In this document: positions 1-15,115 of the stretch, piece after piece
How the letters are laid out: every line of letters starts with the position of its first letter
Position numbering within the stretch: the stretch's first letter is position 1
Source: Rhodothermaeota bacterium MED-G12
GTDB lineage: Bacteria; Bacteroidota; Rhodothermia; Balneolales; Balneolaceae
NCBI GenBank assembly: GCA_002457365.1
Contig: NTKP01000032.1
Location: 1-19,273, forward strand
Length of the DNA stretch: 19,273 nucleotides
Direction of reading: 5' to 3'
Notes under the pieces: generated by a model
The model's database searches: none
Seen by the model: only the letters and a program-made list of their open reading frames with translations
What the model was told of the DNA's origin: nothing
Program-made: the position numbers and the translations under genes

Positions 1-1
1 T

Positions 2-2368
2 TCTATGGGACGTGAAGGGATGTCTATTCAGTTAGTAGAATCTGATTACAACTTGTTAGAATCATATGTACGTGGCGATGTTATTACCTTTGATGCTACT
101 CTTGGTTTCTATAATGGTACTGCACAGGTCGGAGTTGAAAATGTTATCCTTGTAGGTAATGTAAATGCTGATTACACAGATTATGCTTCACTATTAGAGC
201 CTTGGGAAGTACCTATGAGTGAATTAAATACCTTTACGGGTACTGAATTGTACATGAATATCGAAGGATATTTACAATATAATGGTGCCTATGTTAAGTT
301 CCCATCCTCTACGGTAACTCAAGCGGGTGAATTTAATGGCCGTGTTGATTGGTCGGTAAATCAAGGTGGCTCTCGTATGTACGTATACGACACCTCCCTT
401 CGTTTCAGAAACGACCATGCTATTGGTGCTGAAGGTTATATCCCTTCGTATAACGCACGAAGAATCGACGGTGATGACGGTCCATTTGTTGCCCCAGCTT
501 CTGGAGCTAATGTAGACATTAGTGGATTTGTGAACTTTGTTGGGGACGATCCTGATGGACTCGTGCCTAGTGGTAACGGTGCCCTTTCTATCAACCCATT
601 TGAAGATGGAGTGGTATGGTTAAACGAGGCACGTTTTGTGGATGGTCAAGATGTTGGTGGAACTACTTTTAGTTGGCCCAATGACCTAGTAGTAAATGGA
701 TTACCTCCTGTGTTTTCTAATATCATGTTATCGGATTCAGCGATTACTTCAACCGATGAAGTGACCGTTAGCGCTGATATTGTAGGGGCCGAAGGAGCTA
801 CTATAACAGCAGTGAGCTTAACCTACAGTGTTGGTGGTAAGGATTCTACTGTTACAATGACCAACTCTGCTGGTGATACCTACGAGTTTACACTACCTGC
901 TTTCCCTAATTTCTCAGCGGTTTCTTTTCACATAGAAGCAACTGACTCAGAAGGATTGACAGGACGTGCGCCTTTATCTGGCGGGTTCAATTTCTTTGTG
1001 CAGGATGAGCCAATTACCAGCATAGAGTTTTTACAAAAAACAGACAACACCGGTGGTGACAGTCCACTCTTTGGACTCGGTAACCTAGACGTTAACATAA
1101 CCGCTACTGTAGTGGCAAGTGCTGTTACTGATGGGTTTATTGTAATTCAAGACAAAGCTGCTGCTTGGTCTGGTATTTTTGTTGAGCAAGATAATGCTAC
1201 GTCTGCCTTAGCACAGGGAGATATTATCAACATCACCAATTTAGCTACAAATGAGACCTATGGTGTTACTTCAGCTATCCTTAACGAGTTCACTAAAACA
1301 GGAACGAATGCGGAAATGGATACCTTAGCAATGTCTGCCATCACCCAAGATGTTGTGGCAAACTTCGAAGCACACGAAGGTTTACTCCTTTCTCTTGATG
1401 ATGTACGTGTCATTACCAACCAAGCCGATGGAGGTTCTGATTATGGTGAGTGGATGATTGGTTCACGTCAAGGTGGTGGTGCAGCTGATACCTTAGAAGT
1501 TGGCGAAGGTCTTCGGGTAGATGACAACGTAAACTTTGGCCAATTAACCTATGGTTCTAACCTAAACGAACATGTGAAAATTGGTGCGGTTATCGATAAT
1601 TTTACAGGAGTTCTACACTACAGCTATGGTAACCCAAAAATGATCATGCGTAGCCTGGATGATGTTACTTCATCTGACTGGACGGTTCCAATGACAGATT
1701 TTGTGCTTAAAACACCTGAAGAAGGAGCCACTATTGTTGCAAATGAAGATGTTACTCCAACATGGTCAGCAACTACAGATTTGGATGGCAATACTGTACG
1801 ATATGAAAAGGTTTTATATCTACCGGATTCTACAGAGTTCTTTGCTGCTCCTTCAAATAATGACGGTTTGGATACGGAAATAACCGTACCAGCAACATTA
1901 TTAGATCAACTACTAGTTTCAGCAGGAGTTGCAGATGGTGAGAGTGTAACACTACTTTGGAATGTGCGAGTGAATGATGGTGTAGACACCCTAGCCATAT
2001 CAAGTGGATATGATATAGACACTAATACATTTACCCCAATCTATAGAACAGCAACATTTACCAATAGTTCAGAAGTTAACAACGAAGTGGTAGCAGGACT
2101 TCCTGAGAAGTTTGACCTCAAACCTAACTATCCAAATCCATTTAACCCAAGTACGCGTATTTCATTTGACCTACCTGAGTCAGCTGAAGTTCGACTAACG
2201 GTATTTGATGTGTTGGGTAGACAAGTAGCAACCTTGGTCAATCAGCCAATGAAAGCGGGTTCTCATACCGTGAATTTTGATGCTCAACGTTTAGCGAGTG
2301 GGGTATACATATACCGACTAGAAGCAGGTAGCTTCAGTATGACTCGAAACATGATGTTGATTAAATAA
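2..2368 (+). CDS. Large secreted protein, 5'-truncated by the window edge; T9SS cargo with Ig-like and OB-like beta modules
   Basis: The frame is open from position 2 to TAA at 2366-2368. The first Met (MGREGMSIQ...) has no signal peptide, so the true N-terminus lies upstream. The C-terminal 85 aa are a textbook T9SS sorting domain. Internal modules include VNITATVVASAVTDGFIVIQDKAAAWSGIFVEQ...GDIINITNLATNETYGVT and GAVIDNFTGVLHYSYGNPKMIMRSLDDV, plus an Ig-like segment (EVTVSADIVGAEGATITAVSLTYSVGGKDSTVTMTNSAGDTYEFTLP). Confidence 0.85.
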   Translation, partial: SMGREGMSIQLVESDYNLLESYVRGDVITFDATLGFYNGTAQVGVENVILVGNVNADYTDYASLLEPWEVPMSELNTFTGTELYMNIEGYLQYNGAYVKFPSSTVTQAGEFNGRVDWSVNQGGSRMYVYDTSLRFRNDHAIGAEGYIPSYNARRIDGDDGPFVAPASGANVDISGFVNFVGDDPDGLVPSGNGALSINPFEDGVVWLNEARFVDGQDVGGTTFSWPNDLVVNGLPPVFSNIMLSDSAITSTDEVTVSADIVGAEGATITAVSLTYSVGGKDSTVTMTNSAGDTYEFTLPAFPNFSAVSFHIEATDSEGLTGRAPLSGGFNFFVQDEPITSIEFLQKTDNTGGDSPLFGLGNLDVNITATVVASAVTDGFIVIQDKAAAWSGIFVEQDNATSALAQGDIINITNLATNETYGVTSAILNEFTKTGTNAEMDTLAMSAITQDVVANFEAHEGLLLSLDDVRVITNQADGGSDYGEWMIGSRQGGGAADTLEVGEGLRVDDNVNFGQLTYGSNLNEHVKIGAVIDNFTGVLHYSYGNPKMIMRSLDDVTSSDWTVPMTDFVLKTPEEGATIVANEDVTPTWSATTDLDGNTVRYEKVLYLPDSTEFFAAPSNNDGLDTEITVPATLLDQLLVSAGVADGESVTLLWNVRVNDGVDTLAISSGYDIDTNTFTPIYRTATFTNSSEVNNEVVAGLPEKFDLKPNYPNPFNPSTRISFDLPESAEVRLTVFDVLGRQVATLVNQPMKAGSHTVNFDAQRLASGVYIYRLEAGSFSMTRNMMLIK
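2111..2365 (+). other. T9SS (Por) C-terminal sorting domain of the preceding CDS
   Basis: FDLKPNYPNPFNPSTRISFDLPESAEVRLTVFDVLGRQVATLVNQPMKAGSHTVNFDAQRLASGVYIYRLEAGSFSMTRNMMLIK. It has the canonical NYPNPFNP..T.I.F.L, V.L.V.D..GR.V and SG.Y.Y.L motifs at the extreme C-terminus. Confidence 0.88.
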
Positions 2369-2390
2369 ATTTTTTGATGTAAATCATTTT

Positions 2391-2428
2391 GAGATGAGAG
2401 CGGGAGTTCTCATCTCATCTTCTTTTTT
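2391..2428 (+). terminator. Rho-independent terminator after the T9SS cargo gene
   Basis: Perfect 9-bp stem GAGATGAGA (2391-2399) / TCTCATCTC (2408-2416), an 8-nt loop, then the T-rich tail atctTCTTTTTT. It starts 23 nt after the stop codon. Confidence 0.75.
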
Positions 2429-2463
2429 GTACTCCGGTACCTTGTTCACTTAAGTAGTTCATT

Positions 2464-2484
2464 CAATTAGTTGACCCAATTAGT
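2464..2484 (+). promoter_or_regulatory. 8-bp direct repeat CAATTAGT-N5-CAATTAGT upstream of the five-gene operon; candidate regulator site flanking a TTGACC hexamer
   Basis: CAATTAGT occurs at 2464-2471 and again at 2477-2484, a 13-bp period. It lies 57-77 nt upstream of ATG 2541, and TTGACC (2471-2476) overlaps the first copy and the spacer. I could not identify a convincing -10 element. Confidence 0.3.
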
Positions 2485-2540
2485 GTCGTAAAAGTCCAAT
2501 CAAGTTGGGCTTAACCCTTAAAGATTCGATTATACTGCTC

Positions 2541-4088
2541 ATGCCCGTACGTTTATTTTCTTATTTGCGCAGCCAACTAACCCTTCTTGGAGTACTAGTT
2601 ATTGGCATTCTTTGGGCTTCTTGTGATGCTGGAATAACTGGGGACTATATCGAAAACCAAGCCCCCAGCACCTACATGACCATAGCGGGCATCGATCGGG
2701 AAGACGAATTTAGATTGTCCAGCCAAATTCGGATTTCATGGTGGGGAAATGATCCAGATGGCTATGTCGCAGGTTTTGAATACGCCATAAATGACACCTC
2801 GGAGGGAGCATGGTCCTTCACAACCAGAACTGATAGTACCTTTATTTTGCCTATTACGGAAGGTCAAACGGTAGATGATGTGTTGTTTAAAGTGCGTGCT
2901 ATCGATAATGATGGGGCCAAAGATCCAGTGGGAGCCAGGTTGCGGTATCCAATTATTAATTCAACCCCATCGGCTGCCTTCAAGCCAACTGAAACCCCAG
3001 CTGACACTATGTTTGGAATTGCTAGTTTCGGCTGGACCATAGACGATCCGGATGGGTTGCTGAATGTTAGAAGCACACAAATTGCGTTCAATGACACGCT
3101 CAATGGGTGGGTAGATATTCCGTTTAATGCCACAAACAATGGAGAGCTTTTTATCTCAGTATCCGTTGACAACAAGACCGTTGGGATCAAAACAGGTCAG
3201 GTGTATCTTGGGCGTTCCTACAGCAGCGCTATTGATGGAGAAGGGAACCCCATACTAGTTAGTGGAATTGAGGTTGGTGCGACGAATACCGCTTATGTCC
3301 GAACCATCGATGCAGCAGGGGCAGTAAGTATGCGTGATCAGGTCCAGTGGTATGTAAAGCAACAAAAATCCAAGGTGCTATTTCTCAATGACATTGGTAA
3401 AAATTCATCCCTTGATGACATGAACTGGCACCTTAGCTATTTAAGCGAATTGGGGATTGACCCGGATATATGGTTAATAAACACGGGCCAACCTGCATTA
3501 GGGACGATTGAACTCTCAGATCAATTCCCAAAAGTGGTGAATCCTACACTTAAAAAAACCTTATCACAATGGGACCATATCTATTGGGTTTCGGACGATG
3601 TAGATCGAAATATTGTACATGCCTTAGACATTACTTCTGAATTTTTCGCTGGAGGTGGAAGCATGTTTGTCACCATTCCTATGAAAGAGGTTTCTCAAGA
3701 AGACGTGATATTTAACTTTCTTCCGGTTGATTCGATTGGCTTCTTTCCACCAGGCGGTATCGAGACAGGATTTGTTATTAACGCTGGAACCGAAATAACT
3801 CCAGTAGATGAACCCAATGCTCCGACCTTGAAATTGGAATCTCGTGTGGTAGGCTGGTATCCATTACAAGCGGTATCTGGTTCTACCTTATTATATGAGT
3901 CGGATTATCGCTCCACTACCTTATTAGGATTTATTACTGACTACACTATAATGGAAGGGGTAAGCATTAAGAATACGGAAGGTAATCTCATTTACTTTGG
4001 AATGGATTTAACCAAACTTAATGGGAATAACAACATGAAGGATTTTATAGAGTACATGTGCCTGCAACAGTTAGGATTCCAACAATAA
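2541..4088 (+). CDS. Predicted lipoprotein: two tandem W-x-G-x-DPDG / R-x-ID-x-x-GA beta-sandwich modules plus an uncharacterised alpha/beta-like C-terminal half
   Basis: ATG 2541 gives MPVRLFSYLRSQLTLLGVLVIGILWASC, with a signal peptide and lipobox Cys. The track's TTG 2505 start only adds 12 aa upstream. Repeat 1 is IRISWWGNDPDGYVAGFEYAINDT...FKVRAIDNDGAKDP. Repeat 2 is ASFGWTIDDPDGLLNVRSTQIAFNDT...AYVRTIDAAGAVS. There is a 10-nt gap to the next gene. Confidence 0.8.
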   Translation: MPVRLFSYLRSQLTLLGVLVIGILWASCDAGITGDYIENQAPSTYMTIAGIDREDEFRLSSQIRISWWGNDPDGYVAGFEYAINDTSEGAWSFTTRTDSTFILPITEGQTVDDVLFKVRAIDNDGAKDPVGARLRYPIINSTPSAAFKPTETPADTMFGIASFGWTIDDPDGLLNVRSTQIAFNDTLNGWVDIPFNATNNGELFISVSVDNKTVGIKTGQVYLGRSYSSAIDGEGNPILVSGIEVGATNTAYVRTIDAAGAVSMRDQVQWYVKQQKSKVLFLNDIGKNSSLDDMNWHLSYLSELGIDPDIWLINTGQPALGTIELSDQFPKVVNPTLKKTLSQWDHIYWVSDDVDRNIVHALDITSEFFAGGGSMFVTIPMKEVSQEDVIFNFLPVDSIGFFPPGGIETGFVINAGTEITPVDEPNAPTLKLESRVVGWYPLQAVSGSTLLYESDYRSTTLLGFITDYTIMEGVSIKNTEGNLIYFGMDLTKLNGNNNMKDFIEYMCLQQLGFQQ

Positions 4089-4098
4089 ACCTTAGCCA

Positions 4099-7080
4099 AT
4101 GAATACAAAAAAACATATCCGTTCTTTTCTATTTTTAGCTGGCTGTTTTATTAGTTTGATGATGTATGGCAGCACAGCACTTAAGGCACAAAGCACCGGT
4201 GATATTACCGGGGTTATTACCGAAGAGGCAACGGGTGAGACCTTACCTGGCGTGAATGTTCGAATTGTAGGAACAAATTTTGGAGCCGCAACGGATGTGG
4301 ACGGCCGATTCACCATTAAAAGTATTAGACCTGGAGAATATACCCTCGAAATCACCTTTATTGGATTTCAAGTCACTCAATTAACAGGGATTGTAGTCAC
4401 AGCTGGACAGACAACCGAAGTAGCCCAAAGCCTTACCGAACAAATTTTTGAATCCGATCAAGAAGTGGTGGTCATTGGTGAGGCACCTATTTTTGATGTT
4501 GAAAAATCAACTACATCATCGACTATTTCCAAAAAAGATATCGAGGCGGCACCTATACAGCGAGTAGAAGATGCAGTATCACTACAATCCGGGGTGGTTA
4601 AAGACCCTACTGGACTTTATATAAAGGGGGGACGTGCCTATGAAACTGGCTATGTGGTTGATGGTGTTTCTGCACAGGATCCATTAGCTGGAACGGGGTT
4701 TGGACTCGATTTAGGATCTAACTCGTTCAGTAATATAGAAGTAATTACAGGTGGTGTTGGGGCAGAATATGGGGACGTAACCTCAGGTGTCGTTTCGGTG
4801 CAAACTCAAAATGGGGGAGATCGTTACGAAGGTAATTTCTCACACAAACGAGATAATTTAGGCAGCAACGTATTGTCTAATCAGGCAAACTTTTTCTCTG
4901 ACATCTATGAATTAAGCTTAGGTGGTCCATCACTATTAACGGAACAGTTATTGCCTGCTTTAGGTATTGATTTGCCTGGATCACTTACCTTTTTTGCAAC
5001 AGGACAAATTTCGTTAACCGATGGATATACCAAATTATCAGCGAGTCAAATTCGTTCATCCATCGTGAACACTGATTTTTGGTCCCCTCGTCAAGGGAAC
5101 CGGTGGAATGGGATGTTTAAGATGACCTACAACATCAAACCTGGTGTTCGACTACAGGGCGCGTATCAGCGCTCGTTAACCATCAACCAGAATACGCGAA
5201 TGCTTCAGATAACAGGGGCCGATACGCAGATTCGACCAGGTTTTCAGTTCGCATTTTCAAATGGGTTTTTAGATAATGCCAGTACGTATACCCACGATAG
5301 TAATTTGTCCTACCTAAAATATACTCAGACGCTCTCGCAGTCGGCTTTTTATGAGGTTCAGGTGAGTCGATTATTTACCCGGCTCCGCGCCGATGCAAAT
5401 GGGCGTAAATGGCGCCCAACCAATGTGGATAGTGAGTTTGACCCAGAGAGTATTGTGACTTCTCCTGCAGAAGAGTTTGAAGGAGGCGAGGACTTTACCT
5501 ATGTACTAGCAGGTCCAGGTTATGTGAATAATGGGGGTATTTCCACTCTATGGCACGATCACTTTGCGGAGGAACTTACCGTGAAAAGTAGCCTAACTAA
5601 GTTTTTTGGCGATCGCACGAATCAAATAGTAGCGGGATTTGAATTTAAATTTAATGACTATCAGTGGATTGATATCACACGTCCTTGGATTGGGGCACCT
5701 ATATTTATTGATGAGAACAGGACTTCGGAAACGTTTAGGGTAGGGGAAACTTTTGATGCATGGCGAGTTAAGCCAAAAAGAGGAGCCATTTTTGTAACCG
5801 ATAAAATAAGGTACAATGGTCTTATTGCTAATATTGGGGCGCGATTGGAATATTGGGCGCCTGGGCGCTATGTGGACAATGCGGTAAATAATGCCCTTGA
5901 TCCAAATACCCTTTCCACCATCCCTACATTTGTGGCACAAGATTATCTAGACAGTAGTACCGAGATTTTGGGTCTTCGCTATAAGTTTAGGTTCTTACCC
6001 AAGATTAATGTGTCGTTCCCCGTTCGGGAAAACCAAGTGTTGTTCTTTAATTACGGACACTCGACACGAATTCCTCACCCCTCTTATATATATGCAGGTC
6101 TAGATCCTTTTTATCAAGATCAGTCCGATTTGCCTGATTTAGGGAACCCCAACTTGGATCCAGAAGTTGACATTTCTTATGAAATTGGGTTCAGAAATCA
6201 AATTACTTCGAACGATGCATTTAATGCTTCTGCCTTCTGGAGAGATAAATATGATTTTGTTACCACCCAATCTATTCGAGTTCAGGATGTAGATGGTCGA
6301 AACGTAAGTAAAGCCTTCCGTATTAATGGGGATTATGCCCGCTCGCGAGGGGTAGAGTTATCCTACATCAAACGCTACAAGGATTTAATTCGAGGTCAAC
6401 TTTCCTTTACCTATTCACGAGCAGAGGGGCTAAGTTCTACTAATGATGATAATTTAAATGCAATCAATGCAAACCAAAACATCGGAAGTAACGTAGAAAC
6501 TCCATTAGCTTGGGATCGCCCATTTGATATAAAAGGTAATATCACTTTTACTCATGATAGGCCACAAGGTTTGTTTGGCTGGTCGGCTTTAAATGACTTT
6601 CAGATCTTTTTATCTGGGGTGTGGCGATCCGGGACCCGTTATACTCCTATGGAATTCATCGGGCTACAAAGAAACCCAGTTACAGGTAGAGAAGACTGGC
6701 GACCTATTTATGAGCGCGTAGTCGATCCTGCTAAGCGTTACAGTGAATTAGGCCCTGCTTGGTTCTACATGGATTTGAACATTCAAAAGTGGTTTGAAGT
6801 ACAAGGGGTTCGTATTTCTACCTTTGTTGAACTAACTAATGTGTTGGATAACAGAAGTTCAGTCATCGTTAATCCGGTTACAGGTGAAGGGTATAAGAAA
6901 TATCCTCGAGATCCTGCGGCGTTGATGGCGCTTCGAAGCGATCGAAGTTATGATGTCCCAGGTAATGTTCGCGATCCAAGGTATTTAGATCCAACCGATA
7001 ATAACTTACCCGCTTACGATAACCCGGCCAATTATATAGAACAACGGCACTTAATGGTAGGGGTATCGATTCGATTCTAA
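4099..7080 (+). CDS. TonB-dependent outer-membrane receptor with an N-terminal carboxypeptidase-regulatory-like domain; no adjacent SusD
   Basis: The signal peptide ends ...TALKAQ. The CarboxypepD_reg-like domain reads GVITEEATGETLPGVNVRIVGTNFGAATDVDGRFTIKSIRPGEYTLEITFIGF. The plug reads IKGGRAYETGYVVDGVSAQDP...IEVITGGVGAEYGDVTSGVVSVQT. A long barrel ends in an aromatic residue (...MVGVSIRF). Confidence 0.93.
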   Translation: MNTKKHIRSFLFLAGCFISLMMYGSTALKAQSTGDITGVITEEATGETLPGVNVRIVGTNFGAATDVDGRFTIKSIRPGEYTLEITFIGFQVTQLTGIVVTAGQTTEVAQSLTEQIFESDQEVVVIGEAPIFDVEKSTTSSTISKKDIEAAPIQRVEDAVSLQSGVVKDPTGLYIKGGRAYETGYVVDGVSAQDPLAGTGFGLDLGSNSFSNIEVITGGVGAEYGDVTSGVVSVQTQNGGDRYEGNFSHKRDNLGSNVLSNQANFFSDIYELSLGGPSLLTEQLLPALGIDLPGSLTFFATGQISLTDGYTKLSASQIRSSIVNTDFWSPRQGNRWNGMFKMTYNIKPGVRLQGAYQRSLTINQNTRMLQITGADTQIRPGFQFAFSNGFLDNASTYTHDSNLSYLKYTQTLSQSAFYEVQVSRLFTRLRADANGRKWRPTNVDSEFDPESIVTSPAEEFEGGEDFTYVLAGPGYVNNGGISTLWHDHFAEELTVKSSLTKFFGDRTNQIVAGFEFKFNDYQWIDITRPWIGAPIFIDENRTSETFRVGETFDAWRVKPKRGAIFVTDKIRYNGLIANIGARLEYWAPGRYVDNAVNNALDPNTLSTIPTFVAQDYLDSSTEILGLRYKFRFLPKINVSFPVRENQVLFFNYGHSTRIPHPSYIYAGLDPFYQDQSDLPDLGNPNLDPEVDISYEIGFRNQITSNDAFNASAFWRDKYDFVTTQSIRVQDVDGRNVSKAFRINGDYARSRGVELSYIKRYKDLIRGQLSFTYSRAEGLSSTNDDNLNAINANQNIGSNVETPLAWDRPFDIKGNITFTHDRPQGLFGWSALNDFQIFLSGVWRSGTRYTPMEFIGLQRNPVTGREDWRPIYERVVDPAKRYSELGPAWFYMDLNIQKWFEVQGVRISTFVELTNVLDNRSSVIVNPVTGEGYKKYPRDPAALMALRSDRSYDVPGNVRDPRYLDPTDNNLPAYDNPANYIEQRHLMVGVSIRF

Positions 7081-7081
7081 C

Positions 7082-8137
7082 ATGAATTCAATAAAACAGC
7101 ATATCAAACGTACGTTCTATTACAGCATATTCCCGAAAAGTCTTTATGTATCTATTGCATTCATAGGATTGTTATTTTTATTCGTAGTTGGTTCTACTAC
7201 TACGCTAAAAGCACAAAAAAGCTTTGGGCAAGACCGAGCAGGTACGGAAGGGTTTCAGTTTACCAAAATCCCTGTCGATCCCCGTTCGGCGGCTATGGGG
7301 AACTCCAATATGGCCGATGCAATGGATGGCTCTAGTTTATATTGGAATCCTGCTTTATCGGCAGAAACGAATGGATCAGAATTTATGGTCAGTCATACGG
7401 AGTATGTAGCTGGTATTCAGCAAGATTATTTTAGTTATATCCAAAGGATAAATAGCTATGCAATTGGTGTTTCCGTTCAGTACTTAGGTTCTGGTGACAT
7501 AATGGAAACTACGGAATTTCAACCCTTTGGTACGGGCAGAATATTTTCAACCCACCACATGGCTGCCGGACTTTCTGTTGCTCAGAAGGTAACGGATTTG
7601 TTCAGTTATGGCCTTAGTTTTAAATATTTATTAGAGAAAGTTGAAGAGATACAATACCAGAGTGGTGCAATAGATTTTGGTTTTGCTTACCGGGTAGGAG
7701 ATACAGGACTGCGTTTTGCAGTCGGGATTAATAACTTTGGATTAGATGCGACTCCTGAAGGTACGACGAGTAGAGAGTCACTAGATGGCCTTAAAGAAAT
7801 TGTACCGGAGACCAATACATCACTTCCTACTCGCTTTCATATCGGGGCGGCTTATGATTTGGTAAAAAATCAACAAAATAAGGTAATTCTTACCGCTCAA
7901 GTAACGAATCCATCCGACAATGCAGAGCAGTTAAACATCGGGGCGGAGTACAGTTTTATGGATCAGTTCTACTTGCGTACGGGCTATGAGTTTGGTCAGT
8001 TAGAACGCCGTATGCCTAGTTTAGGGGGTGGCGTTGCGGTGCCCTTTGCAGGCCGAACATTAAAGGCAGATTATGCTTACACACGGTTTGAGCGTTTGGG
8101 GCAAATTCATCGGATAGGAGTGAGGGTAAGTTTATGA
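7082..8137 (+). CDS. PorV/PorQ-family (FadL-like) outer-membrane beta-barrel protein
   Basis: The signal peptide ends ...TLKAQ. The family N-terminal motif is present: FQFTKIPVDPRSAAMGNSNMADAMDGSSLYWNPALSA. Alternating beta-strand patterning runs throughout. It starts 1 nt after the receptor stop. Confidence 0.78.
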   Translation: MNSIKQHIKRTFYYSIFPKSLYVSIAFIGLLFLFVVGSTTTLKAQKSFGQDRAGTEGFQFTKIPVDPRSAAMGNSNMADAMDGSSLYWNPALSAETNGSEFMVSHTEYVAGIQQDYFSYIQRINSYAIGVSVQYLGSGDIMETTEFQPFGTGRIFSTHHMAAGLSVAQKVTDLFSYGLSFKYLLEKVEEIQYQSGAIDFGFAYRVGDTGLRFAVGINNFGLDATPEGTTSRESLDGLKEIVPETNTSLPTRFHIGAAYDLVKNQQNKVILTAQVTNPSDNAEQLNIGAEYSFMDQFYLRTGYEFGQLERRMPSLGGGVAVPFAGRTLKADYAYTRFERLGQIHRIGVRVSL

Positions 8138-9444
8138 AATTAGCACTAATTCAACCTCTTATGAGAGTTTCAGCACCTTTGCTACTGCTCTTTTTGATGA
8201 TCGTTCAAGGTGGATGTAGCGAACTATTTAATACCAAAGACAATACAGATACCGACGAAATATTTGACGAGGGTAAGATAGATCCGCGCTTAGAAAACGT
8301 GGATGGTTATGCCCCTGTATTACCATTTTGGGGTGGTTTTGATGCTCCTAATGATGTGCATGTTGGATTTGATGAATTTGTATATGTAACCGATGCCAAT
8401 GGGGTGCACTTATTGGATAGGGCGGACCTATCCCCTCGTGTTACTATAGAACTAGAAGGAGCTGAGGCGGTAACACAGGATAGACTCTTGAATGTGTACG
8501 TAGCAGCTAGGATTGACACCATTATAGAGAGTATTGATCCTACAATCACATGGAATTTACCGGCCGTGTTTAAAATAAAGAACATGAATGGAGCTGGTCC
8601 TGTTACCTTTGTGGACACGCTTATTTTCCCCTTTGATGATGCCAGTTTAAGTACTTCTGCGGCTCAAAATTCACGCTTAAATCGTAGCAGTGGGACCAAT
8701 TACGAAAAAGTGAACATCACAGGTCTCAGCATATTAGCTGATAATACCTTGTATGTCACAAGAACGGGTCCATTCAATGAGACCACTCAAGTTGCGGCGC
8801 CAGACAATACGGTGTTAGAATTTCATCGAATAGTAGAAAACGGCGTTGAAACAGATAAGATGCGCAACGTGCGTCAAATCAGGAGTCTTAGCCCAAATGT
8901 GCCTTCTTTAAGAAGTGCCATAGGCCTTAGCGGAATTGCTACCTTTGTAGCCCCACCACAGCGAGATACCTATAACGATAATCGAAGCTTTTTGATTACA
9001 CAATCACAAGCCAACGTAGACATACCATTTCGAGTTTTATGGATTGATGTAGTAGAGACCGTTGATGGGTTGATTTATCAACAAAATTCACAGCTACTTG
9101 CCCAAGACACCTCACAAGCCAGTGGTTTTCTGTATGAACCTAATAAATTCATGCGCCCTCAAGACGTGGCATTTGGAGGAGATGATGATGCCTTTATTTT
9201 TGTAGTGGATAGTGAGACTCACCGATTATACCAGTTTCAGTCTAATGGTCAAGAAGGCGTCCCCCCACCAGCAGGAGCGGAAGACCAAACTCGTCAAATT
9301 ATGGTGTCTTTTGGTGAGCTAGGGGCAGGTCCTAAACAGTTTAACATGCCTAGTGGTGTGGCATACTTTCGCCGAGTAGTTTATGTAGCCGACAAAGGCA
9401 ATAATCGTATTGCCCGGTATAAATTAACCTCTGATTTCGAATAA
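8134..9444 (+). CDS. Lipoprotein with NHL-repeat / six-bladed beta-propeller-like domain
   Basis: ATGA start/stop overlap with the upstream gene. Signal and lipobox: LLLLFLMIVQGGCSE. NHL-like blades: PSGVAYFRRVVYVADKGNNRIARYKL, PQDVAFGGDDDAFIFVVDSETHRLYQF and PNDVHVGFDEFVYVTDANGVHLLD. Confidence 0.75.
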   Translation: MKLALIQPLMRVSAPLLLLFLMIVQGGCSELFNTKDNTDTDEIFDEGKIDPRLENVDGYAPVLPFWGGFDAPNDVHVGFDEFVYVTDANGVHLLDRADLSPRVTIELEGAEAVTQDRLLNVYVAARIDTIIESIDPTITWNLPAVFKIKNMNGAGPVTFVDTLIFPFDDASLSTSAAQNSRLNRSSGTNYEKVNITGLSILADNTLYVTRTGPFNETTQVAAPDNTVLEFHRIVENGVETDKMRNVRQIRSLSPNVPSLRSAIGLSGIATFVAPPQRDTYNDNRSFLITQSQANVDIPFRVLWIDVVETVDGLIYQQNSQLLAQDTSQASGFLYEPNKFMRPQDVAFGGDDDAFIFVVDSETHRLYQFQSNGQEGVPPPAGAEDQTRQIMVSFGELGAGPKQFNMPSGVAYFRRVVYVADKGNNRIARYKLTSDFE

Positions 9445-9448
9445 AACT

Positions 9449-10741
9449 ATGCGAGATAGACGTATACATGAATCCGGGAAGTATATGTTTTCGGTTGGAG
9501 TGTATCTCTTGATTTCGCTCCTTTTGGTGACTTGCTCAACCCAAAGTTCTGGCGACCTTTCGCAGCAAGAATTAGTACAGGCGCGCAGTAAAGTTTTACT
9601 TATTTCATTTGATGGTTTCCGGGCAGATTACTTAAGCTCAGAACACACTCCATTTCTGCAGGAATTATCCAAGAATGGAGCCCGCTCAGAAGGGCTCATT
9701 CCTGTATTCCCATCCAAAACGTTTCCTAATCATTATGCTATTGCCGTGGGCTTATATCCGGAAAATAACGGGATTATTGGGAACTCGATGGTAGATACTG
9801 TCATGGGTAAAAGCTACAGTTTGGGCGATCGAGAGCAGGTAGAAAATCCGAATTGGTACGAAGGAGAGCCTATCTGGAATACGGCTGAAAAACAAGGTGT
9901 ACGCGCTGGAACTATGTTTTGGGTAGGTTCAGAGGCCCCCATACAAGATATGCGCCCAACCCATTGGAAAAGCTACGACGGGACACTGCCCGATAGTGCG
10001 CGTATCGATATGGTCCTAGCTTGGTTGGGTTCAGATTCATCATCTGAAGTTGATTTTGCCACGGTGTACTTTAGTTTTTTGGATAGTCAAGGACATCGCT
10101 ACGGTACAGATGCCCCCCAAACCATAAAAGCATTGCAGCGGGTTGATACACTCATGAGCTATCTCATGCAGCAATTAGCCTCAAAAGGCTTAGATCAAGA
10201 GACGAATATTGTATTGGTTTCTGATCATGGCATGCACAATGTTTCTAGAGAGCGGGTGGTACGCTTAGATAGCTTTATTGACATCGACCGTGTGCGTTGG
10301 ATTAGTGGATCTCCCTCAGTGACCCTGAATATAGACCCTTCATATCGCATGCAGGCGTATCAAGAACTACGAAAAGCTCAAGAAAATGGAGCTCCTTTTA
10401 ATGTATATATGAAACAAGATATACCAGAGCGTTTCCGCTATAAGAATCATGATCGAACGCCAGATTTATTGCTATTGGCTAACTTGGGATACACCATTAC
10501 CACCACAGACCGTTTAGACTCTCGGCCCAATTTCCCATCGGGTGGAGCGCACGGCTATGATCCTACCCATCCAGAAATGCATGCCGTATTTATGGCTATA
10601 GGACCAGATATTGTTCCTGGCAGCGTGCTTCCTCCTTTTGAAGTAGTGCATGTGTACGAATTACTGACCCACCTACTAGGTATAGCACCCGCTCCCAATG
10701 ACGGCAACCTCGAAACGTTTGAGGGAATTCTTTACGATTAA
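9449..10741 (+). CDS. Ectonucleotide pyrophosphatase/phosphodiesterase (NPP family, alkaline-phosphatase superfamily), probably a lipoprotein
   Basis: LLISFDGFRADYL. FPSKTFPNHYAIAVGLYPENNGIIGN contains the catalytic Thr in TFPNH. Metal-ligand motifs are LDSQGHRYG, VSDHGM and GGAHGYD. The N-terminus YLLISLLLVTCS suggests a lipobox, and the alternative start Met13 is at 9485. It starts 4 nt after the NHL gene. Confidence 0.9.
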   Translation: MRDRRIHESGKYMFSVGVYLLISLLLVTCSTQSSGDLSQQELVQARSKVLLISFDGFRADYLSSEHTPFLQELSKNGARSEGLIPVFPSKTFPNHYAIAVGLYPENNGIIGNSMVDTVMGKSYSLGDREQVENPNWYEGEPIWNTAEKQGVRAGTMFWVGSEAPIQDMRPTHWKSYDGTLPDSARIDMVLAWLGSDSSSEVDFATVYFSFLDSQGHRYGTDAPQTIKALQRVDTLMSYLMQQLASKGLDQETNIVLVSDHGMHNVSRERVVRLDSFIDIDRVRWISGSPSVTLNIDPSYRMQAYQELRKAQENGAPFNVYMKQDIPERFRYKNHDRTPDLLLLANLGYTITTTDRLDSRPNFPSGGAHGYDPTHPEMHAVFMAIGPDIVPGSVLPPFEVVHVYELLTHLLGIAPAPNDGNLETFEGILYD

Positions 10742-10797
10742 ATAAAGTTATCTTATTGTGTCACAGAACGTTGTGTACTTTGGCACGGTATATCCGC

Positions 10798-10825
10798 TAT
10801 AATTTGGATTGCATCTAATCAAATT
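10798..10825 (+). promoter_or_regulatory. Possible fdxA promoter -10 (TATAAT) overlapping an imperfect palindrome
   Basis: TATAAT lies at 10798-10803, about 74 nt upstream of ATG 10877. AATTTGGATT-gcatct-AATCAAATT (10801-10825) is a 9/10 inverted repeat with one bulged G. I found no good -35 element at 17-bp spacing. Confidence 0.25.
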
Positions 10826-10876
10826 CGGGCGCATATTTTATCTTAATTCAAGAATAACTCACTCTATTTTCACGCC

Positions 10877-11212
10877 ATGCCTTACGTTGTTACAGAACCA
10901 TGTATTAAATGTAAATACACCAACTGCGCGGCAGTTTGCCCGGTTGACGCTTTTCGAGAAGGGCCTAATTTTTTGGTCATAGATCCTAATGAGTGCATTG
11001 ACTGTGATGCATGTGTATCCGAATGCCCTGTTGAGGCTATTTATCCCGATGATGAGGTGCCTGATAAATGGGAACATTTTATTGACTTGAACGAACGCCT
11101 TGCCGAAGCATGGGAAGACAATGTCATCAACGAAACCAAGGATGCATTGCCTGAAGCAGATGAATGGGCAAGTAAAGAGGGCAAAGAAGATCAACTTCAA
11201 GAAGAGTGGTAA
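10877..11212 (+). CDS. fdxA: 7Fe ([3Fe-4S][4Fe-4S]) ferredoxin, Azotobacter FdI type
   Basis: [62 protein letters not shown]. The Cys pattern is C8-x2-C11-x4-C16-x3-C20-P and C39-x2-C42-x2-C45-x3-C49-P, followed by the typical [12 protein letters not shown] tail. Confidence 0.93.
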
Positions 11213-11257
11213 AGCTACTGGGTAGGGTAGTTTTATATCCATCACCCTGCTAAATCC

Positions 11258-12097
11258 ATGTTAGCACTCGCCCCGTTTTTTGCAAAAGAACGTCCCTCCA
11301 TTATGGGAGTACTTAATGCTACTCCCGATTCCTTTAGCGACGGAGGACAGTTCAATCGGGTTAGTGCAGCTCTTCATCGTATTGACGAAATGATTGAGCA
11401 AGGCGCTTCGATCATTGACATAGGTGGAGAATCTACCCGACCATACGCCCCTGCTGTTGAAGAATCAGAGGAAATTCGCAGGGTTATTCCCATTTTACAA
11501 AACGCAGTACCCCGTTTTTCCGATCAAGTCCTCTTTTCTATTGATACCACTAAATACGGGGTAGCAGAGCAGGCCTTAGATGCGGGTGCGCTCATCATAA
11601 ATGATGTCAGTGGGCTTCAAAAGTCCCCAGCAATGGCAGGCTTAGCGGCATCGTTTAATGCGGCATTTATTCTAATGCACGCCCAAGGAAGTCCCCAGGA
11701 TATGCAAGACAATCCGAGTTATACGCATGCCGTCACAGATATCGTTGATTTTTTAGTACAGCAAAGCGTGCTCTTGCAGCGGGAAGGAGTAGAACATATT
11801 ATTGTGGATCCAGGCATAGGCTTTGGAAAAAGTCTGGATCACAATCTGCAGATTATTGCAGGGCTTGACAAAGTGGTAGAAATTGGCTTTCCTGTATTGT
11901 TAGGTGCCTCTCGGAAATCTATGTTTGGTCAGCTGTTAGACGATCGTGGAGTGGAAGGACGATTGGCAGGAACACTAGCGGCACATTATCATGGATTAAT
12001 GCAGGGAGTGCGTATATTGCGTGTGCATGATGTGCAAGAAGCTAGTGATAGTGTACGAGTGTTTGAAGCTTTACAAGCGGCTAAACAACCAGAATAG
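11258..12097 (+). CDS. folP: Dihydropteroate synthase
   Basis: IMGVLNATPDSFSDGG, IIDIGGESTRP, IINDVSG, DPGIGFGK, LLGASRKS and RVHDV are all pterin-binding-domain signatures. Confidence 0.95.
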   Translation: MLALAPFFAKERPSIMGVLNATPDSFSDGGQFNRVSAALHRIDEMIEQGASIIDIGGESTRPYAPAVEESEEIRRVIPILQNAVPRFSDQVLFSIDTTKYGVAEQALDAGALIINDVSGLQKSPAMAGLAASFNAAFILMHAQGSPQDMQDNPSYTHAVTDIVDFLVQQSVLLQREGVEHIIVDPGIGFGKSLDHNLQIIAGLDKVVEIGFPVLLGASRKSMFGQLLDDRGVEGRLAGTLAAHYHGLMQGVRILRVHDVQEASDSVRVFEALQAAKQPE

Positions 12098-12194
12098 AAT
12101 CTTAGCTTTTGTATAGATACTTTTAGGCCACATATTAGTTGGTTAGACGAACCTATGACACACGCTATTATAAAACGTAAATTACTCTTTTGAA

Positions 12195-13010
12195 TTGAAT
12201 CCTCTAGGCTTTCTCGATTTTGGATTATTGGATTTTCTAGAGACACTAATTATTGCAGGTGCTTTAGTTGGTGTCTACCGTTGGATCCGTGGAACCTACG
12301 CCATTCGCGCAGGTGTGGGTATTTTATTTCTTTTGCTTATCAATTTTATTATTCGATTATTTGGATTCACTACGATTGATTTTATTTTAAGCGCCATTCT
12401 TGATGTAGGTATTTTAGCTGTATTTATCATATTTCAACCAGAAATAAGAGGGCTTTTATACCGAATAGGTCAGAATCCTTCTATTCGATTATTTGGTGGT
12501 AAGTCCAGCACGGAGCAGGTTATTGATGAGGTTATAAATGCGGTTAAGCATATGTCAACTGAGTATATCGGTGCCCTTATTGTTTTTGCTCCTCCTTCTG
12601 GTGCCTTGAATTATGACAATACAGGGACGCAACTCGATTCGGTAGTAAAACAAAAATTATTGGTGAGTATCTTTAGAAAAGAATCTCCATTGCACGATGG
12701 CGCCGTTATTATTCGTAATAACCGGATTACTGCAGCAGGTTGTTTCCTGTCTTTGTCCGAAAATCCTAATTTAAGTAAATCTCTAGGTACTCGTCACCGA
12801 GCAGCAATTGGTATGTCCGAAAATAACAACATGTTTGTTATTGTCGTCTCAGAAGAAACCGGCCGTATATCGGTAGCTCAAAACGGTAATTTAAACAGTG
12901 GACTTAGTATTCAACGTCTCCGTAAAGAAATGGAGAGTAGTTTTTCTTTGACTAAGTTTAAAGAAGAAGTAGCCTTTTCAGCCCCGCAAACGGAAATGAA
13001 TCTGAAATAA
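12195..13010 (+). CDS. cdaA: Membrane-anchored diadenylate cyclase (c-di-AMP synthase, CdaA/DacA type)
   Basis: Three N-terminal TM helices end in FQPEIRGLL. The DAC domain reads GALIVF...PLHDGAVIIRNNRITAAGCFLSLS...LGTRHRAAIGMSE...FVIVVSEETGRISVA. No in-frame ATG lies upstream of the conserved N-terminus, so a TTG start is inferred (12195, or alternatively 12228). Confidence 0.9.
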   Translation: MNPLGFLDFGLLDFLETLIIAGALVGVYRWIRGTYAIRAGVGILFLLLINFIIRLFGFTTIDFILSAILDVGILAVFIIFQPEIRGLLYRIGQNPSIRLFGGKSSTEQVIDEVINAVKHMSTEYIGALIVFAPPSGALNYDNTGTQLDSVVKQKLLVSIFRKESPLHDGAVIIRNNRITAAGCFLSLSENPNLSKSLGTRHRAAIGMSENNNMFVIVVSEETGRISVAQNGNLNSGLSIQRLRKEMESSFSLTKFKEEVAFSAPQTEMNLK

Positions 13011-13042
13011 TTTGGGGCCTGCTAACCGGCATCGGGTTGTAA

Positions 13043-14386
13043 TTACCCAGAGTTTCGTTCTAAGAAATGAGTATTTCCCTGTACTCTATATAGACTTCGA
13101 GCGGTCGTAACGGTGCCTTTTCCATAGCGATTATTGATACGATCAATGGCTTGATAACGCTGAGTATGTTCGGCTTCGTCCCGAAAAAATAGATTCATTT
13201 GGCTGGTTTTATCCATGTCTTGAGTGCTTATCATTAGACTACGAATGGCCATTTTTCGCTGGCAAAAAGAGTCAATGAGTTCAGCTAATTCTCTCATGCA
13301 CGCGTCATACACATACTTGGTTATGTGAGTAAAACTAGGGGTTACAAAACGGAACCCTATGCTAGGATAGTCATTTTTGTCAAAACCAATATGCCCACCA
13401 AAGCTACTCGAACGTATGCCGTAGGCCCGCATTCGGTAGCAGATCATTTCGATTCCAATGGCTAGTTCACCTTTGATAGCTTCTGGGTCAGTACTTCCTT
13501 CGGAAAATGTATGCCCATAACTGACGCCCCATTTAGGTGAATATTCATGATTTTCCTCGAGTATTCGGCCTTGATCCTGGCCGGTAATCGTTTCAAAAAG
13601 CATACGCCCAAAATGGGGTCCAAATAGACGAACAAAGGTGTTGGGCTCATTATGGTTTACCACATCTCGTATGCGCTCATATCCTTCTGCTAGGAGATGC
13701 TCATAACGCCTTCGCCCTACCCCCCATACTTCGTTGAGCGGTAATGGGTGTATATACATTCGTTCATCTTCCTTGCTTAGAATAAGAGAAATACCGCGGG
13801 GCTTATCCAAGCCACTGGCAAGCTTAGCATAGGTTTTGGATCGAGCAATTCCAATAGATCCATACAGTCCCGTGGTTTCCACGATATCGCGTTGCAGTTG
13901 TTGCGCAAAGGTCCGGATTTGAGGTTCTTCTTTGCCCAAAAGAAAACTTGCGTCCATAAAATATTCATCCATCGAATAGCGCTCTATTTGGTGTGAGTAG
14001 CGATTCATAATATGATGTACCTGTGTTGATATAGCGGTATAGCTAGCGTAGTCTACCTGAAGCATGCATACGTAGGGGCATCGCTTGTAAGCTTCATAGG
14101 CACTCATTCCTGTTTTAATCCCCATCGAACGTGCTTCATAAGAAGAAGTGGCTACAATGCCTTTAACGGTTCCATTTTCTTTTCTCCACCCACCCACAAT
14201 GAGGGGGATTCCGTACATATTCTTTCGGAGTTGCTCTACTTGTGCGTAAAAACAGGCAAAGTCGAAATGCAAATATAAGCGGTCCTGTCGGTGTCGGTGT
14301 TGGTGTTCTGGGTATACCGTATTGTAGAGCGTAATACGATGTACATCTTGTTCGGCTTGATACGAATAGTCATTTTTTTTTGGCAT
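13043..14386 (-). CDS. dinB: Y-family DNA polymerase (DinB/Pol IV-like) with a ~34-aa His/Gln/Arg-rich N-terminal extension
   Basis: The palm motifs look intact: LYLHFDFACFYAQVEQ (first catalytic Asp at residue 42) and ERYSMDEYFMD (the D-E pair). Also present are GIVATSSYEARSMGIKTGM, SIGIARSKTYAKLAS..KP, VWGVGRR, and a little-finger region with the QMNLFF...IDRINNRYG tail. The only possible start is ATG at 14386. Confidence 0.9.
   Translation of the reverse strand: MPKKNDYSYQAEQDVHRITLYNTVYPEHQHRHRQDRLYLHFDFACFYAQVEQLRKNMYGIPLIVGGWRKENGTVKGIVATSSYEARSMGIKTGMSAYEAYKRCPYVCMLQVDYASYTAISTQVHHIMNRYSHQIERYSMDEYFMDASFLLGKEEPQIRTFAQQLQRDIVETTGLYGSIGIARSKTYAKLASGLDKPRGISLILSKEDERMYIHPLPLNEVWGVGRRRYEHLLAEGYERIRDVVNHNEPNTFVRLFGPHFGRMLFETITGQDQGRILEENHEYSPKWGVSYGHTFSEGSTDPEAIKGELAIGIEMICYRMRAYGIRSSSFGGHIGFDKNDYPSIGFRFVTPSFTHITKYVYDACMRELAELIDSFCQRKMAIRSLMISTQDMDKTSQMNLFFRDEAEHTQRYQAIDRINNRYGKGTVTTARSLYRVQGNTHFLERNSG
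14288..14305 (-). repeat. In-frame hexanucleotide tandem repeat (CACCAA CACCGA CACCGA) encoding HQHRHR in the polymerase N-terminal extension
   Basis: The plus strand reads TCGGTG TCGGTG TTGGTG at 14288-14305, which is codons 28-33 (H-Q-H-R-H-R) of the minus-strand CDS. Confidence 0.85.
14373..14381 (-). repeat. A9 homopolymer in codons 2-5 of the polymerase gene
   Basis: The plus strand has T x9 at 14373-14381. The coding strand reads ATG CCA AAA AAA AAT (M P K K N). Confidence 0.9.
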
Positions 14387-14432
14387 AAATTACTCCGCTA
14401 TTGATATGTACAATATATGTGTGTAATTTAAA

Positions 14433-14455
14433 ATGACCAAACAAATATTGGTCAT
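14433..14455 (+). promoter_or_regulatory. Perfect 8-bp inverted repeat ATGACCAA-N7-TTGGTCAT spanning both candidate start codons of the orphan gene
   Basis: ATGACCAA lies at 14433-14440, the spacer ACAAATA follows, and TTGGTCAT lies at 14448-14455. The left arm contains ATG 14433 and the right arm overlaps the in-frame ATG 14454. It could be an operator or an mRNA hairpin that occludes initiation. Confidence 0.4.
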
Positions 14456-15095
14456 GAATAACTTTCCCCTTGTCGAAATGCTTGCTTTTTTTCCCCGCTA
14501 TTCAGAGGTGCACACTTTTGATTGGAGGCGCCGCTATGTGCGGCAGGTACGTCATATTAGATCCTGCCACACTAAGACGCTAGGTGGGGTGCGATATTCA
14601 TTTTTTAGCATTGTAACTCAGCAGGGTGAAGCTATGGATGTGCGCTTTAATCACGATGAATTACTTTGGGACATAGTAGCGCTGCCTGGATCTGAGTTAG
14701 CTATACATAGCGAAGATGGCTCGCATTTTGTTATTGACCGAATACTGGTGCACCAACAGCGGCATAAGCATCAGCCTTCTCTGGCGCATCGTATGCGCCC
14801 CATCCGGTTTGAGTGGCTTCCTCACGCCCAATGCGCGAGGCAGAGCCCTATTGAATACGCCAAGGTAGACCGCATGCATCCGTATCGTTTTTTAAAAGGA
14901 AAAAATAGCTCTTATCAGGTTCATAGGATAGAAACGCGTCATCTAGAAGATGTTATGGTCACCCGGCATTTCCATTATGTTATTGAGGATACCGAGCGGA
15001 GATTCTATCATGTAGTATACATATTGGATCAGGGAGATTGGCGGTTTATACAAGAAGTAGATGAACAGTTCTTATTTCATCGGTCTAGTCCGTGA
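14433..15095 (+). CDS. Hypothetical His/Arg-rich protein with two tandem modules resembling the ImuB C-terminal (ImuB-C / DUF6504-like) domain
   Basis: It is the only long ORF in a 730-nt space, with no competing frame. It has 18 His in 220 aa. Internal duplication: aa 29-84 (FDWRRRYVRQVRHI...VRYSFFSIVTQQGEAMDVRFNHDELLWDIV) against aa 151-208 (YRFLKGKNSSYQVHRI...TRHFHYVIEDTERRFYHVVYILDQGDWRFIQ). The alternative start is ATG 14454. Function is unknown. Confidence 0.6.
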   Translation: MTKQILVMNNFPLVEMLAFFPRYSEVHTFDWRRRYVRQVRHIRSCHTKTLGGVRYSFFSIVTQQGEAMDVRFNHDELLWDIVALPGSELAIHSEDGSHFVIDRILVHQQRHKHQPSLAHRMRPIRFEWLPHAQCARQSPIEYAKVDRMHPYRFLKGKNSSYQVHRIETRHLEDVMVTRHFHYVIEDTERRFYHVVYILDQGDWRFIQEVDEQFLFHRSSP

Positions 15096-15115
15096 AAATG
15101 GGCTAAATAATATAA

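Follow-up and report, generated by a model that had tools for sequence, protein, structure and literature searches.

Bacterial error-prone polymerases are held in check by small partners (UmuD', YolD, ImuA/ImuB-C), which decide when mutagenic synthesis is allowed. The locus described here raises the question of what a small protein encoded back to back with such a polymerase does. It lies in a 19,273-nucleotide stretch of Rhodothermaeota bacterium MED-G12 (Balneolaceae; assembly GCA_002457365.1, contig NTKP01000032.1, positions 1 to 19,273, hereafter the window), where an open reading frame (ORF) at 14433–15095 on the forward strand diverges from the gene of a Y-family DNA polymerase. A first-pass annotation, made from the letters alone, had described the ORF as a histidine- and arginine-rich orphan built from two tandem modules resembling the C-terminal domain of ImuB (ImuB-C). 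We conclude that the product is probably a non-catalytic accessory subunit of the divergent translesion polymerase. This role is favoured by the linkage of the two genes, their co-occurrence across genomes, a LexA box between them, the lack of DnaE2 in five relatives and of UmuD in the genus of the window, the motifs of the polymerase, and a confident non-enzymatic β-structure model.

A conserved gene built by tandem duplication

The open frame was confirmed and encodes 220 amino acids, with 8.2% His (about 8% had been estimated before) and 10.9% Arg. A search of 5.8 billion proteins returned 18 homologues at 50–98% identity that differ by indels of whole codons; those with names are listed as 'hypothetical protein' of Balneolaceae and Gracilimonas. 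In an alignment of 14 full-length homologues (long forms) 58 columns are invariant and a nine-codon indel is in frame, so the ORF is, judged from its conservation, clearly a real gene. Absence of homologues had been named beforehand as a sign that the frame is not translated; they are present and conserved, and with about 100 relatives in all the label 'orphan' has to be dropped. The start codon probably lies downstream of the one first called. Homologues of 202–203 aa begin with MN(K/N)FPL, which is equivalent to Met8 of the 220-aa frame, whereas the ATG at 14433 falls in a conserved inverted repeat and is absent or out of frame in other genomes. The probable true extent is therefore 14454–15095 on the forward strand, 213 aa plus the stop codon.

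The proposed internal duplication is not visible in the lone sequence. Smith–Waterman alignment of the two halves gave z = −0.5, under the shuffle mean, and alignment of the two modules as first delimited gave z = +0.25, a score equalled or exceeded by 758 of 2000 shuffles; the self-alignment is thus no better than shuffled sequence. A first hhalign comparison of the halves, based on a shallow alignment of 14 close sequences, reached a probability of 1.4%. An exhaustive profile search of 1.84 billion representatives retrieved remoter long forms together with proteins of ~100 aa that match the C-terminal half only, and a follow-up search showed the latter to be a single-domain family of about 60 clusters, ~96 aa in length and again from Balneolales. 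Both halves of the long form match this family by hhalign, the N-terminal half with a probability of 97.7 (E 2.2e-12, 80 columns) and the C-terminal half with 99.6 (E 1.6e-24). When a more diverse long-form alignment was used, the halves also matched each other (probability 92, E 5.6e-7). Eight further genomes each have a frame of ~208 aa whose two halves are both matched by a HMMER model of the single-domain family. By these profile comparisons, the only ones in which the repeat shows, the protein consists of a ~96-aa unit duplicated in tandem. The earlier proposal of a duplication is thereby upheld, as is its register, with QVRHIRS opposite QVHRIET. The size given for the modules does not stand: the unit spans about 85–120 aa including an N-terminal strand, and the ~57-aa modules correspond to its four-strand cores.

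Unit 1 (aa 1–85; 14454–14708, forward strand) consists of the N-terminal strand FPLVEMLAFF, a short helix (DWRRRY) and a four-strand meander. Unit 2 (aa 91–213; 14724–15092, forward strand) has the strand VIDRILV, an invariant RHKHxPS..HR..P.RFE segment, an inserted PYRF strand, the four-strand meander and a QEVDExxLF tail. Within unit 2 lies the His/Arg patch VHQQRHKHQ (14748–14774, forward strand), of which R-H-K-H-x-P-S is invariant in the 14 long-form homologues and which MAFFT pairs with RGFxxPxL of the single-domain forms. The patch had been seen as echoed in the N-terminal extension of the polymerase, a likeness that proved superficial, since only E-H-Q-H is kept among polymerase orthologues. 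Residues W196, P143, Q200, E201 and F208 of the family are invariant; when long and short forms are compared, W196 does not vary and R145 and R183 hardly do. In one Balneolaceae genome (G387) we found six matches to the single-domain family over several contigs, three of them with in-frame stops, a sign that these copies may have multiplied and decayed recently.

An AlphaFold2 model computed with 49 sequences is almost all β, with a mean pLDDT of 87.7 and a pTM of 0.84. Each unit is modelled as six-stranded, with a long hairpin meander after the N-terminal strand. The predicted strands of unit 1 are residues 6–14, 29–43, 46–55, 60–66 and 71–76 (pLDDT 83–97), and those of unit 2 are 91–101, 114–123, 142–148, 152–167, 170–179, 184–190 and 195–202. 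The high pTM suggests that the two units are packed in a fixed way. The fold is without a match in the solved-structure and viral libraries that were searched: Foldseek returned nothing at E 0.001 or better from the PDB (best E 0.057, TM ≤ 0.22) or from the viral models of BFVD, and sequence searches of the PDB with the long-form and single-domain profiles gave no match. An earlier model built from 14 sequences had a pLDDT of 60, and its Foldseek matches were discarded as meaningless. No catalytic-looking family matched the protein in family and model searches. A match to DUF1854 (E 0.005) was seen in just 2 of 19 members and was for that reason treated as chance. Searches of PHROGs, and of phages and plasmids by tblastn, gave no match, and there is no sign of a mobile-element gene.

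Linkage to a Y-family polymerase and LexA control

The partner gene (13043–14386, reverse strand; Pfam IMS E 9e-42) encodes a Y-family DNA polymerase of 447 aa. Residues D42 and D140-E141 are present as read from the sequence, and the polymerase is apparently active. It carries a clamp-type motif QMNLFF (QxxLFF in the subfamily), a RecA-NT-like motif and a GNTHFLERN tail. The RecA-NT-like motif, A(I/M)DxINNRYG, is the part of the protein that weakly matches DUF4113 (model positions 5–23). The subfamily is marked by a 35-aa N-terminal extension, DVHRITLYNT..EHQH, and by the tail V.G(N/K)THFLERN, both kept in 22 orthologues. Polymerases paired with long forms read HFDFACFYAQVE, and those paired with single-domain forms read HLDMNCFYAQVE.

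The two genes are strongly linked. In 26 of 26 long-form loci the same divergent polymerase orthologue (445–447 aa, 58–72% identity) lies about 70 bp away, and the flanking genes differ. Single-domain genes also occur next to polymerases of this subfamily (41–59% identity), in divergent orientation, with the polymerase gene first or with the small gene first. A single sample of 201 genomes from the class had the accessory family in 68 genomes and the polymerase tail in 70, with both in 66. The accessory gene is alone in two genomes, and a polymerase-tail match is alone in four, three of which are fragments or remnants. Presence is patchy yet matched within genera, and the copy numbers of the accessory gene and the polymerase agree. 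All accessory matches, and all tail matches bar one weak one (G322, E 4.5e-6), come from the order of the window. The family in its long and single-domain forms was found only in Balneolales, the order being taken from source names. The earlier suggestion that the protein belongs functionally with the divergent polymerase is thus borne out by strict adjacency of the long forms and by near one-to-one co-occurrence.

The pair appears to be an additional translesion system. Five relatives that were checked have a single C-family polymerase each, and so no DnaE2. The same genomes hold a second, shorter Y-family polymerase (a 372–381-aa frame, DinB-like by size), except G385, in which only the paired one was found. 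Some Balneolaceae also have a separate umuDC besides the polymerase and its accessory gene.

The region between the polymerase and the ORF is 67 bp long when measured from Met8 (46 bp as first called) and is strongly conserved across genera. It contains a LexA operator of the Balneolaeota direct-repeat type, ACACACATATATTGTACATA, at 14405–14424 on the reverse strand (TATGTACAATATATGTGTGT on the forward strand, its reverse complement). The operator agrees at 16 of 20 positions with the consensus TTACACATATTTTWTACATA, which has been validated by electrophoretic mobility shift assay (EMSA; PMC7739468). It is the sole match of at least 15/20 in the 19-kb window. Mismatch scoring is poorly selective in this AT-rich genome, where eight sites score at least 16/20; the core-repeat pattern is more informative, and the strict core ACATAT-N5-ACATA occurs in four copies in the 1.38-Mb assembly. 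A LexA box is present at the equivalent position in 24 of the 26 long-form loci. Most single-domain genes likewise have a box immediately upstream, also where no polymerase is adjacent. The EMSA probe p02350Bvul, from Balneola vulgaris, corresponds to the orthologous polymerase/ORF intergenic region, and 98 of its 100 bases match locus L065. According to that study, from which we take the binding, all predicted promoters were bound by purified LexA; its account of the tested polymerase promoter, as far as we draw on it, does not discuss the divergent gene (PMC7739468). By their shared operator, the ORF and the polymerase are members of the Balneolaeota LexA (SOS) regulon. Two genomes of the same genus have exactly one S24 peptidase each, in a LexA-sized open frame, and no UmuD.

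Another of the four core copies is a second good LexA box, GTACATATATTTTACATA, in the genome of the window on contig C4 (6022–6037), ~30 bp upstream of a 681-aa UvrD/PcrA-like helicase (6066–8111). This fits the listing of a helicase of UvrD-like class in the Balneolaeota LexA regulon (PMC7739468). Many long-form loci (L001, L056, L059 and others) have an extra half-site immediately before the LexA box; it makes up a perfect palindrome, ACATATTGATATGT, together with the first repeat of the box. This half-site is missing from the window, which reads CCGCTATTGATATGT.

The second conserved element of the control region is the inverted repeat ATGACCAA-N7-TTGGTCAT at 14433–14455 on the forward strand, which ends on the start codon and is predicted to form an 8-bp hairpin in a very short leader. 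RNAfold gives −9.0 kcal/mol for the hairpin in the window and −7 to −10 kcal/mol among orthologous loci. Across loci the repeat takes the form (AT)GACCAA-N7-TTGGTC(AT). Of 26 orthologous loci, 21 retain the GACC...GGTC arms, around loops that vary in length and sequence. The arms are lost in L073–L075, which belong to one genus, and in L057, and they are reduced to ACC/GGT in L065. Because the spacing of the arms varies, the repeat fits an RNA hairpin better than a protein (dimeric) operator. A hairpin in the 5' leader may act on translation or on the stability of the mRNA; the lineage does not depend on Shine–Dalgarno sites.

Convergent with the ORF is a gene for a YedK-type SRAP protein with an MCGRY start (15116–15832, reverse strand; Pfam SRAP E 1.8e-51). 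Most long-form loci have an SRAP orthologue within about 2.5 kb, and SRAP also adjoins several single-domain genes, which fits the published links of SRAP-like proteins with UmuC-like polymerases. In three loci (L031, L032 and L053) a divergent polymerase is followed by SRAP and a single-domain gene on one strand, 30–70 bp apart. The first two of these have LexA boxes both between the polymerase and SRAP and before the small gene. The flanks of the window locus (11258–13010 and 15850–17370) look ordinary, with a CdaA-type diadenylate cyclase (DAC, E 7e-41) and a MotB/OmpA-like protein and, by eye, folP-like and MotA/ExbB-like genes. The G+C content falls from about 0.44 to about 0.34 past position 16000. 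In a Gracilimonas metagenome-assembled genome (L001, 1–4500) the pair adjoins conflict- or defence-type genes (LmuB_C, MC3 and CTD7 domain genes), a helix-turn-helix gene and AAA_24. The pair may thus sometimes reside in a variable genomic island.

Ancestry and function weighed

In the accessory role that we propose, LexA would repress both genes through the one operator in the 67-bp region, and DNA damage would lead to LexA cleavage and joint induction. The protein would then bind the polymerase at the N-terminal extension of the subfamily, at the C-terminal THFLERN tail, or at both. Together with RecA at the RecA-NT-like motif and the β clamp at QxxLFF, it could build a small mutasome, which would license or target lesion bypass. 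In its single-domain form the protein would work as a homodimer, and the 213-aa form would be a fused pseudo-dimer. Such roles would parallel those of UmuD'2 with UmuC, of YolD/YqjX with YqjW, or of standalone ImuB-C with PolY. The analysis shows the gene itself, its duplication, its linkage and co-occurrence with the polymerase and the LexA operator; binding to the polymerase, mimicry of a dimer and an effect on bypass are inferred.

Several observations weigh against this reading. Single-domain genes are also found after SRAP, beside RmuC or XseA, or alone, so the domain may act on DNA or on other repair proteins and need not strictly be a polymerase subunit. The 201 genomes that were sampled are related and not independent, and their counts describe a strong linkage and not a statistic. 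The assembly of the window, which is 74% complete, shows no S24 peptidase and no LexA gene of its own; LexA was found in two genomes of the same genus.

A rival reading that concerns ancestry, and is compatible with an accessory role, is that the protein is a true if very divergent member of the ImuB-C superfamily (DUF6504, PF20114). It would then be a standalone ImuB-C, duplicated, that assists an active PolY together with RecA, like the Geobacter lexA-imuB-C-polY type. We regard this as possible but doubtful. ImuB-C has been described as a β-rich domain of ~80 aa with a conserved C-terminal Trp and basic residues, whose standalone copies lie by DinB-like polymerases, LexA and SRAP (PMC3765255). 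This general description fits: the units are six-stranded and hold W196, R145 and R183, features that are not specific to ImuB-C, and the genomic niche is the same, with an adjacent PolY, a LexA box and SRAP nearby, DnaE2 being absent. In the hhalign alignments the match runs collinearly from end to end of the domain; the PI(D/N)V strand lines up, and so do the landmarks that the first-pass annotation had pointed to, F.WR, Y.V..V, Y..V.T..G and the C-terminal W.L...D. The ImuB-C fold has been reported as novel and without PDB relatives (PMC12926913), as is the present model, and we found no ImuB-C chain in the PDB for comparison. Homology is therefore possible on the grounds of collinearity, matching landmarks and an equal niche, but every score falls below accepted thresholds. 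The Pfam model DUF6504 does represent ImuB-C; it matches a Caulobacter control genome and small Bacteroidota ORFs between an apparently inactive PolY and DnaE2, and RefSeq places a 'DUF6504 family protein' in Deinococcus lexA-polY-DUF6504-dnaE operons. It is the commonest Pfam family match among the long forms (4 of 19, E 0.008–0.06, all in unit 1), yet the best of these, at 16.8 bits (E 0.0083), is under the gathering score of 24.2 bits. The window protein itself and a six-frame search of its genome gave no DUF6504 match, and among single-domain forms the count is 0 of 40.

Profile comparison with ImuB-C alignments is similarly divided. Unit 1 reaches P 0.0046–0.015 by hhalign (0.0046 with a 20-sequence alignment), and none of 60 column shuffles attains the real score of 16.3, although a control with reversed columns comes to 13.4. 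Unit 2 gives P 0.05–0.14 (0.048 with the 20-sequence alignment). The single-domain family is without signal, at P 0.13–0.19 and with 21 of 60 shuffles reaching the real score. An ImuB-C HMM ranks the window ORF 57th of 4,277 ORFs of its own genome (E 46), and the unit-1 HMM, run against the ImuB-C set plus background, does not separate the ImuB-C sequences. The test is limited by its alignment, which is without proteobacterial and actinobacterial ImuB C-termini; the set came from a word-index search (8 close relatives), a contig scan (15 near-identical types), a phylum scan (1 of 101) and plasmids (Deinococcus, Thermus, Abditibacteriota). The resemblance to ImuB-C claimed by the first-pass annotation is accordingly not established, with HMMER negative in both directions. 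That annotation also found a free-standing, duplicated version next to a polymerase unfamiliar; a standalone ImuB-C adjacent to an active Y-family polymerase, frequently accompanied by LexA and SRAP, has already been described (PMC3765255; PMC6511836, section 17). It is quite possible, if tentative, that the family is instead unrelated to ImuB-C, UmuD and YolD and forms a structurally new class of small subunit of Y-family polymerases, docking as a homodimer or single-chain dimer on the lineage-specific N- and C-terminal extensions of the polymerase.

Two further explanations do without a stable subunit. The protein could be an SOS-induced factor that binds DNA or lesions and acts alone on damaged or single-stranded DNA, tied to the polymerase by regulation and pathway only. 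Many single-domain members are indeed solitary or adjoin RmuC, XseA or SRAP with a LexA box of their own, the conserved exposed-type residues are Arg, His and aromatics, and a DNA-damage-sensing role has been proposed for ImuB-C. The weak Foldseek matches include single-stranded DNA binders (Pur-α, RPA70 and PrgE), but their scores are non-significant and no DNA-binding domain gives a significant fold match. Moreover, the co-occurrence with one polymerase subfamily is almost perfect genome by genome, copy numbers match, and the pair stays adjacent despite shuffled gene orders. We consider this explanation unlikely. A short control region shared by divergent genes is a typical arrangement for a regulator and its target, and the second conserved inverted repeat could be read in the same way, as the site of a transcriptional or post-transcriptional regulator of the polymerase gene. 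However, no helix-turn-helix or other DNA-binding family was detected in the protein, single-domain genes often share an operon, and so a transcript, with the polymerase, and the varying spacing of the repeat speaks for the RNA hairpin. The same group of explanations includes a role as some other SOS effector, for example one that inhibits cell division or modulates RecA; the protein is soluble and all-β in the model, unlike small membrane division inhibitors. We think it very unlikely that the protein is a regulator or effector of this kind.

Comparison with known polymerase partners

Systems of this type, in which a Y-family polymerase under SOS control has a small accessory that is maybe ImuB-C-like, are already known. 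For the family itself we found no name, no Pfam, NCBIfam or PHROG model and no solved structure, and a literature search found no paper describing it. It appears to fill the role of polymerase partner across a whole bacterial order, and its single-domain and duplicated forms offer a natural comparison of a monomer with a fused dimer. As an accessory subunit it would widen the catalogue of mutasome architectures and supply a missing component of the Balneolales SOS regulon, within the scope of one order of marine and saline bacteria and of a known type of function.

The closest parallel is standalone ImuB-C, as encoded in the lexA-imuB-C-polY genes of Geobacter and the lexA-polY-DUF6504-dnaE2 genes of Deinococcus. 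Both proteins are small, β-rich, non-catalytic and LexA-controlled, and both are encoded beside a Y-family polymerase with a RecA-NT motif, often with SRAP near. They further share an N-terminal PI(D/N)V-type strand, a C-terminal Trp and the lack of a PDB relative. In contrast to standalone ImuB-C, the Balneolales domain is duplicated in tandem and its sequence similarity is not significant. The Balneolales protein also has a QEVDExxLFF tail and the His/Arg patch, there is no DnaE2 in the genomes checked, and the family was found in Balneolales only.

YolD/YqjX of Bacillus, the partner of UvrX/YqjW, is likewise a small SOS-linked accessory of a Y-family polymerase that bears a RecA-NT motif, and it replaces UmuD. 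The YolD fold is reported to be an SH3-like barrel with an N-terminal arm, whereas the Balneolales model has no SH3-like or other significant PDB match, and no family member scanned has a Pfam match to YolD-like (PF08863).

UmuD'2 of E. coli Pol V (UmuD'2C-RecA-ATP) is a small, SOS-induced partner of a UmuC-like polymerase with QLxLF and RecA-binding motifs at its C-terminus, much as the Balneolales protein would be. Unlike UmuD, the Balneolales protein is without an S24 peptidase domain, a Ser-Lys dyad or a sign of self-cleavage (no Peptidase_S24 Pfam match up to E 10 among the 59 members of the family that were scanned), and some Balneolaceae have a separate umuDC alongside this pair. UmuD'2 works as a dimer, a state that the tandem duplication of the Balneolales protein could mimic within a single chain.

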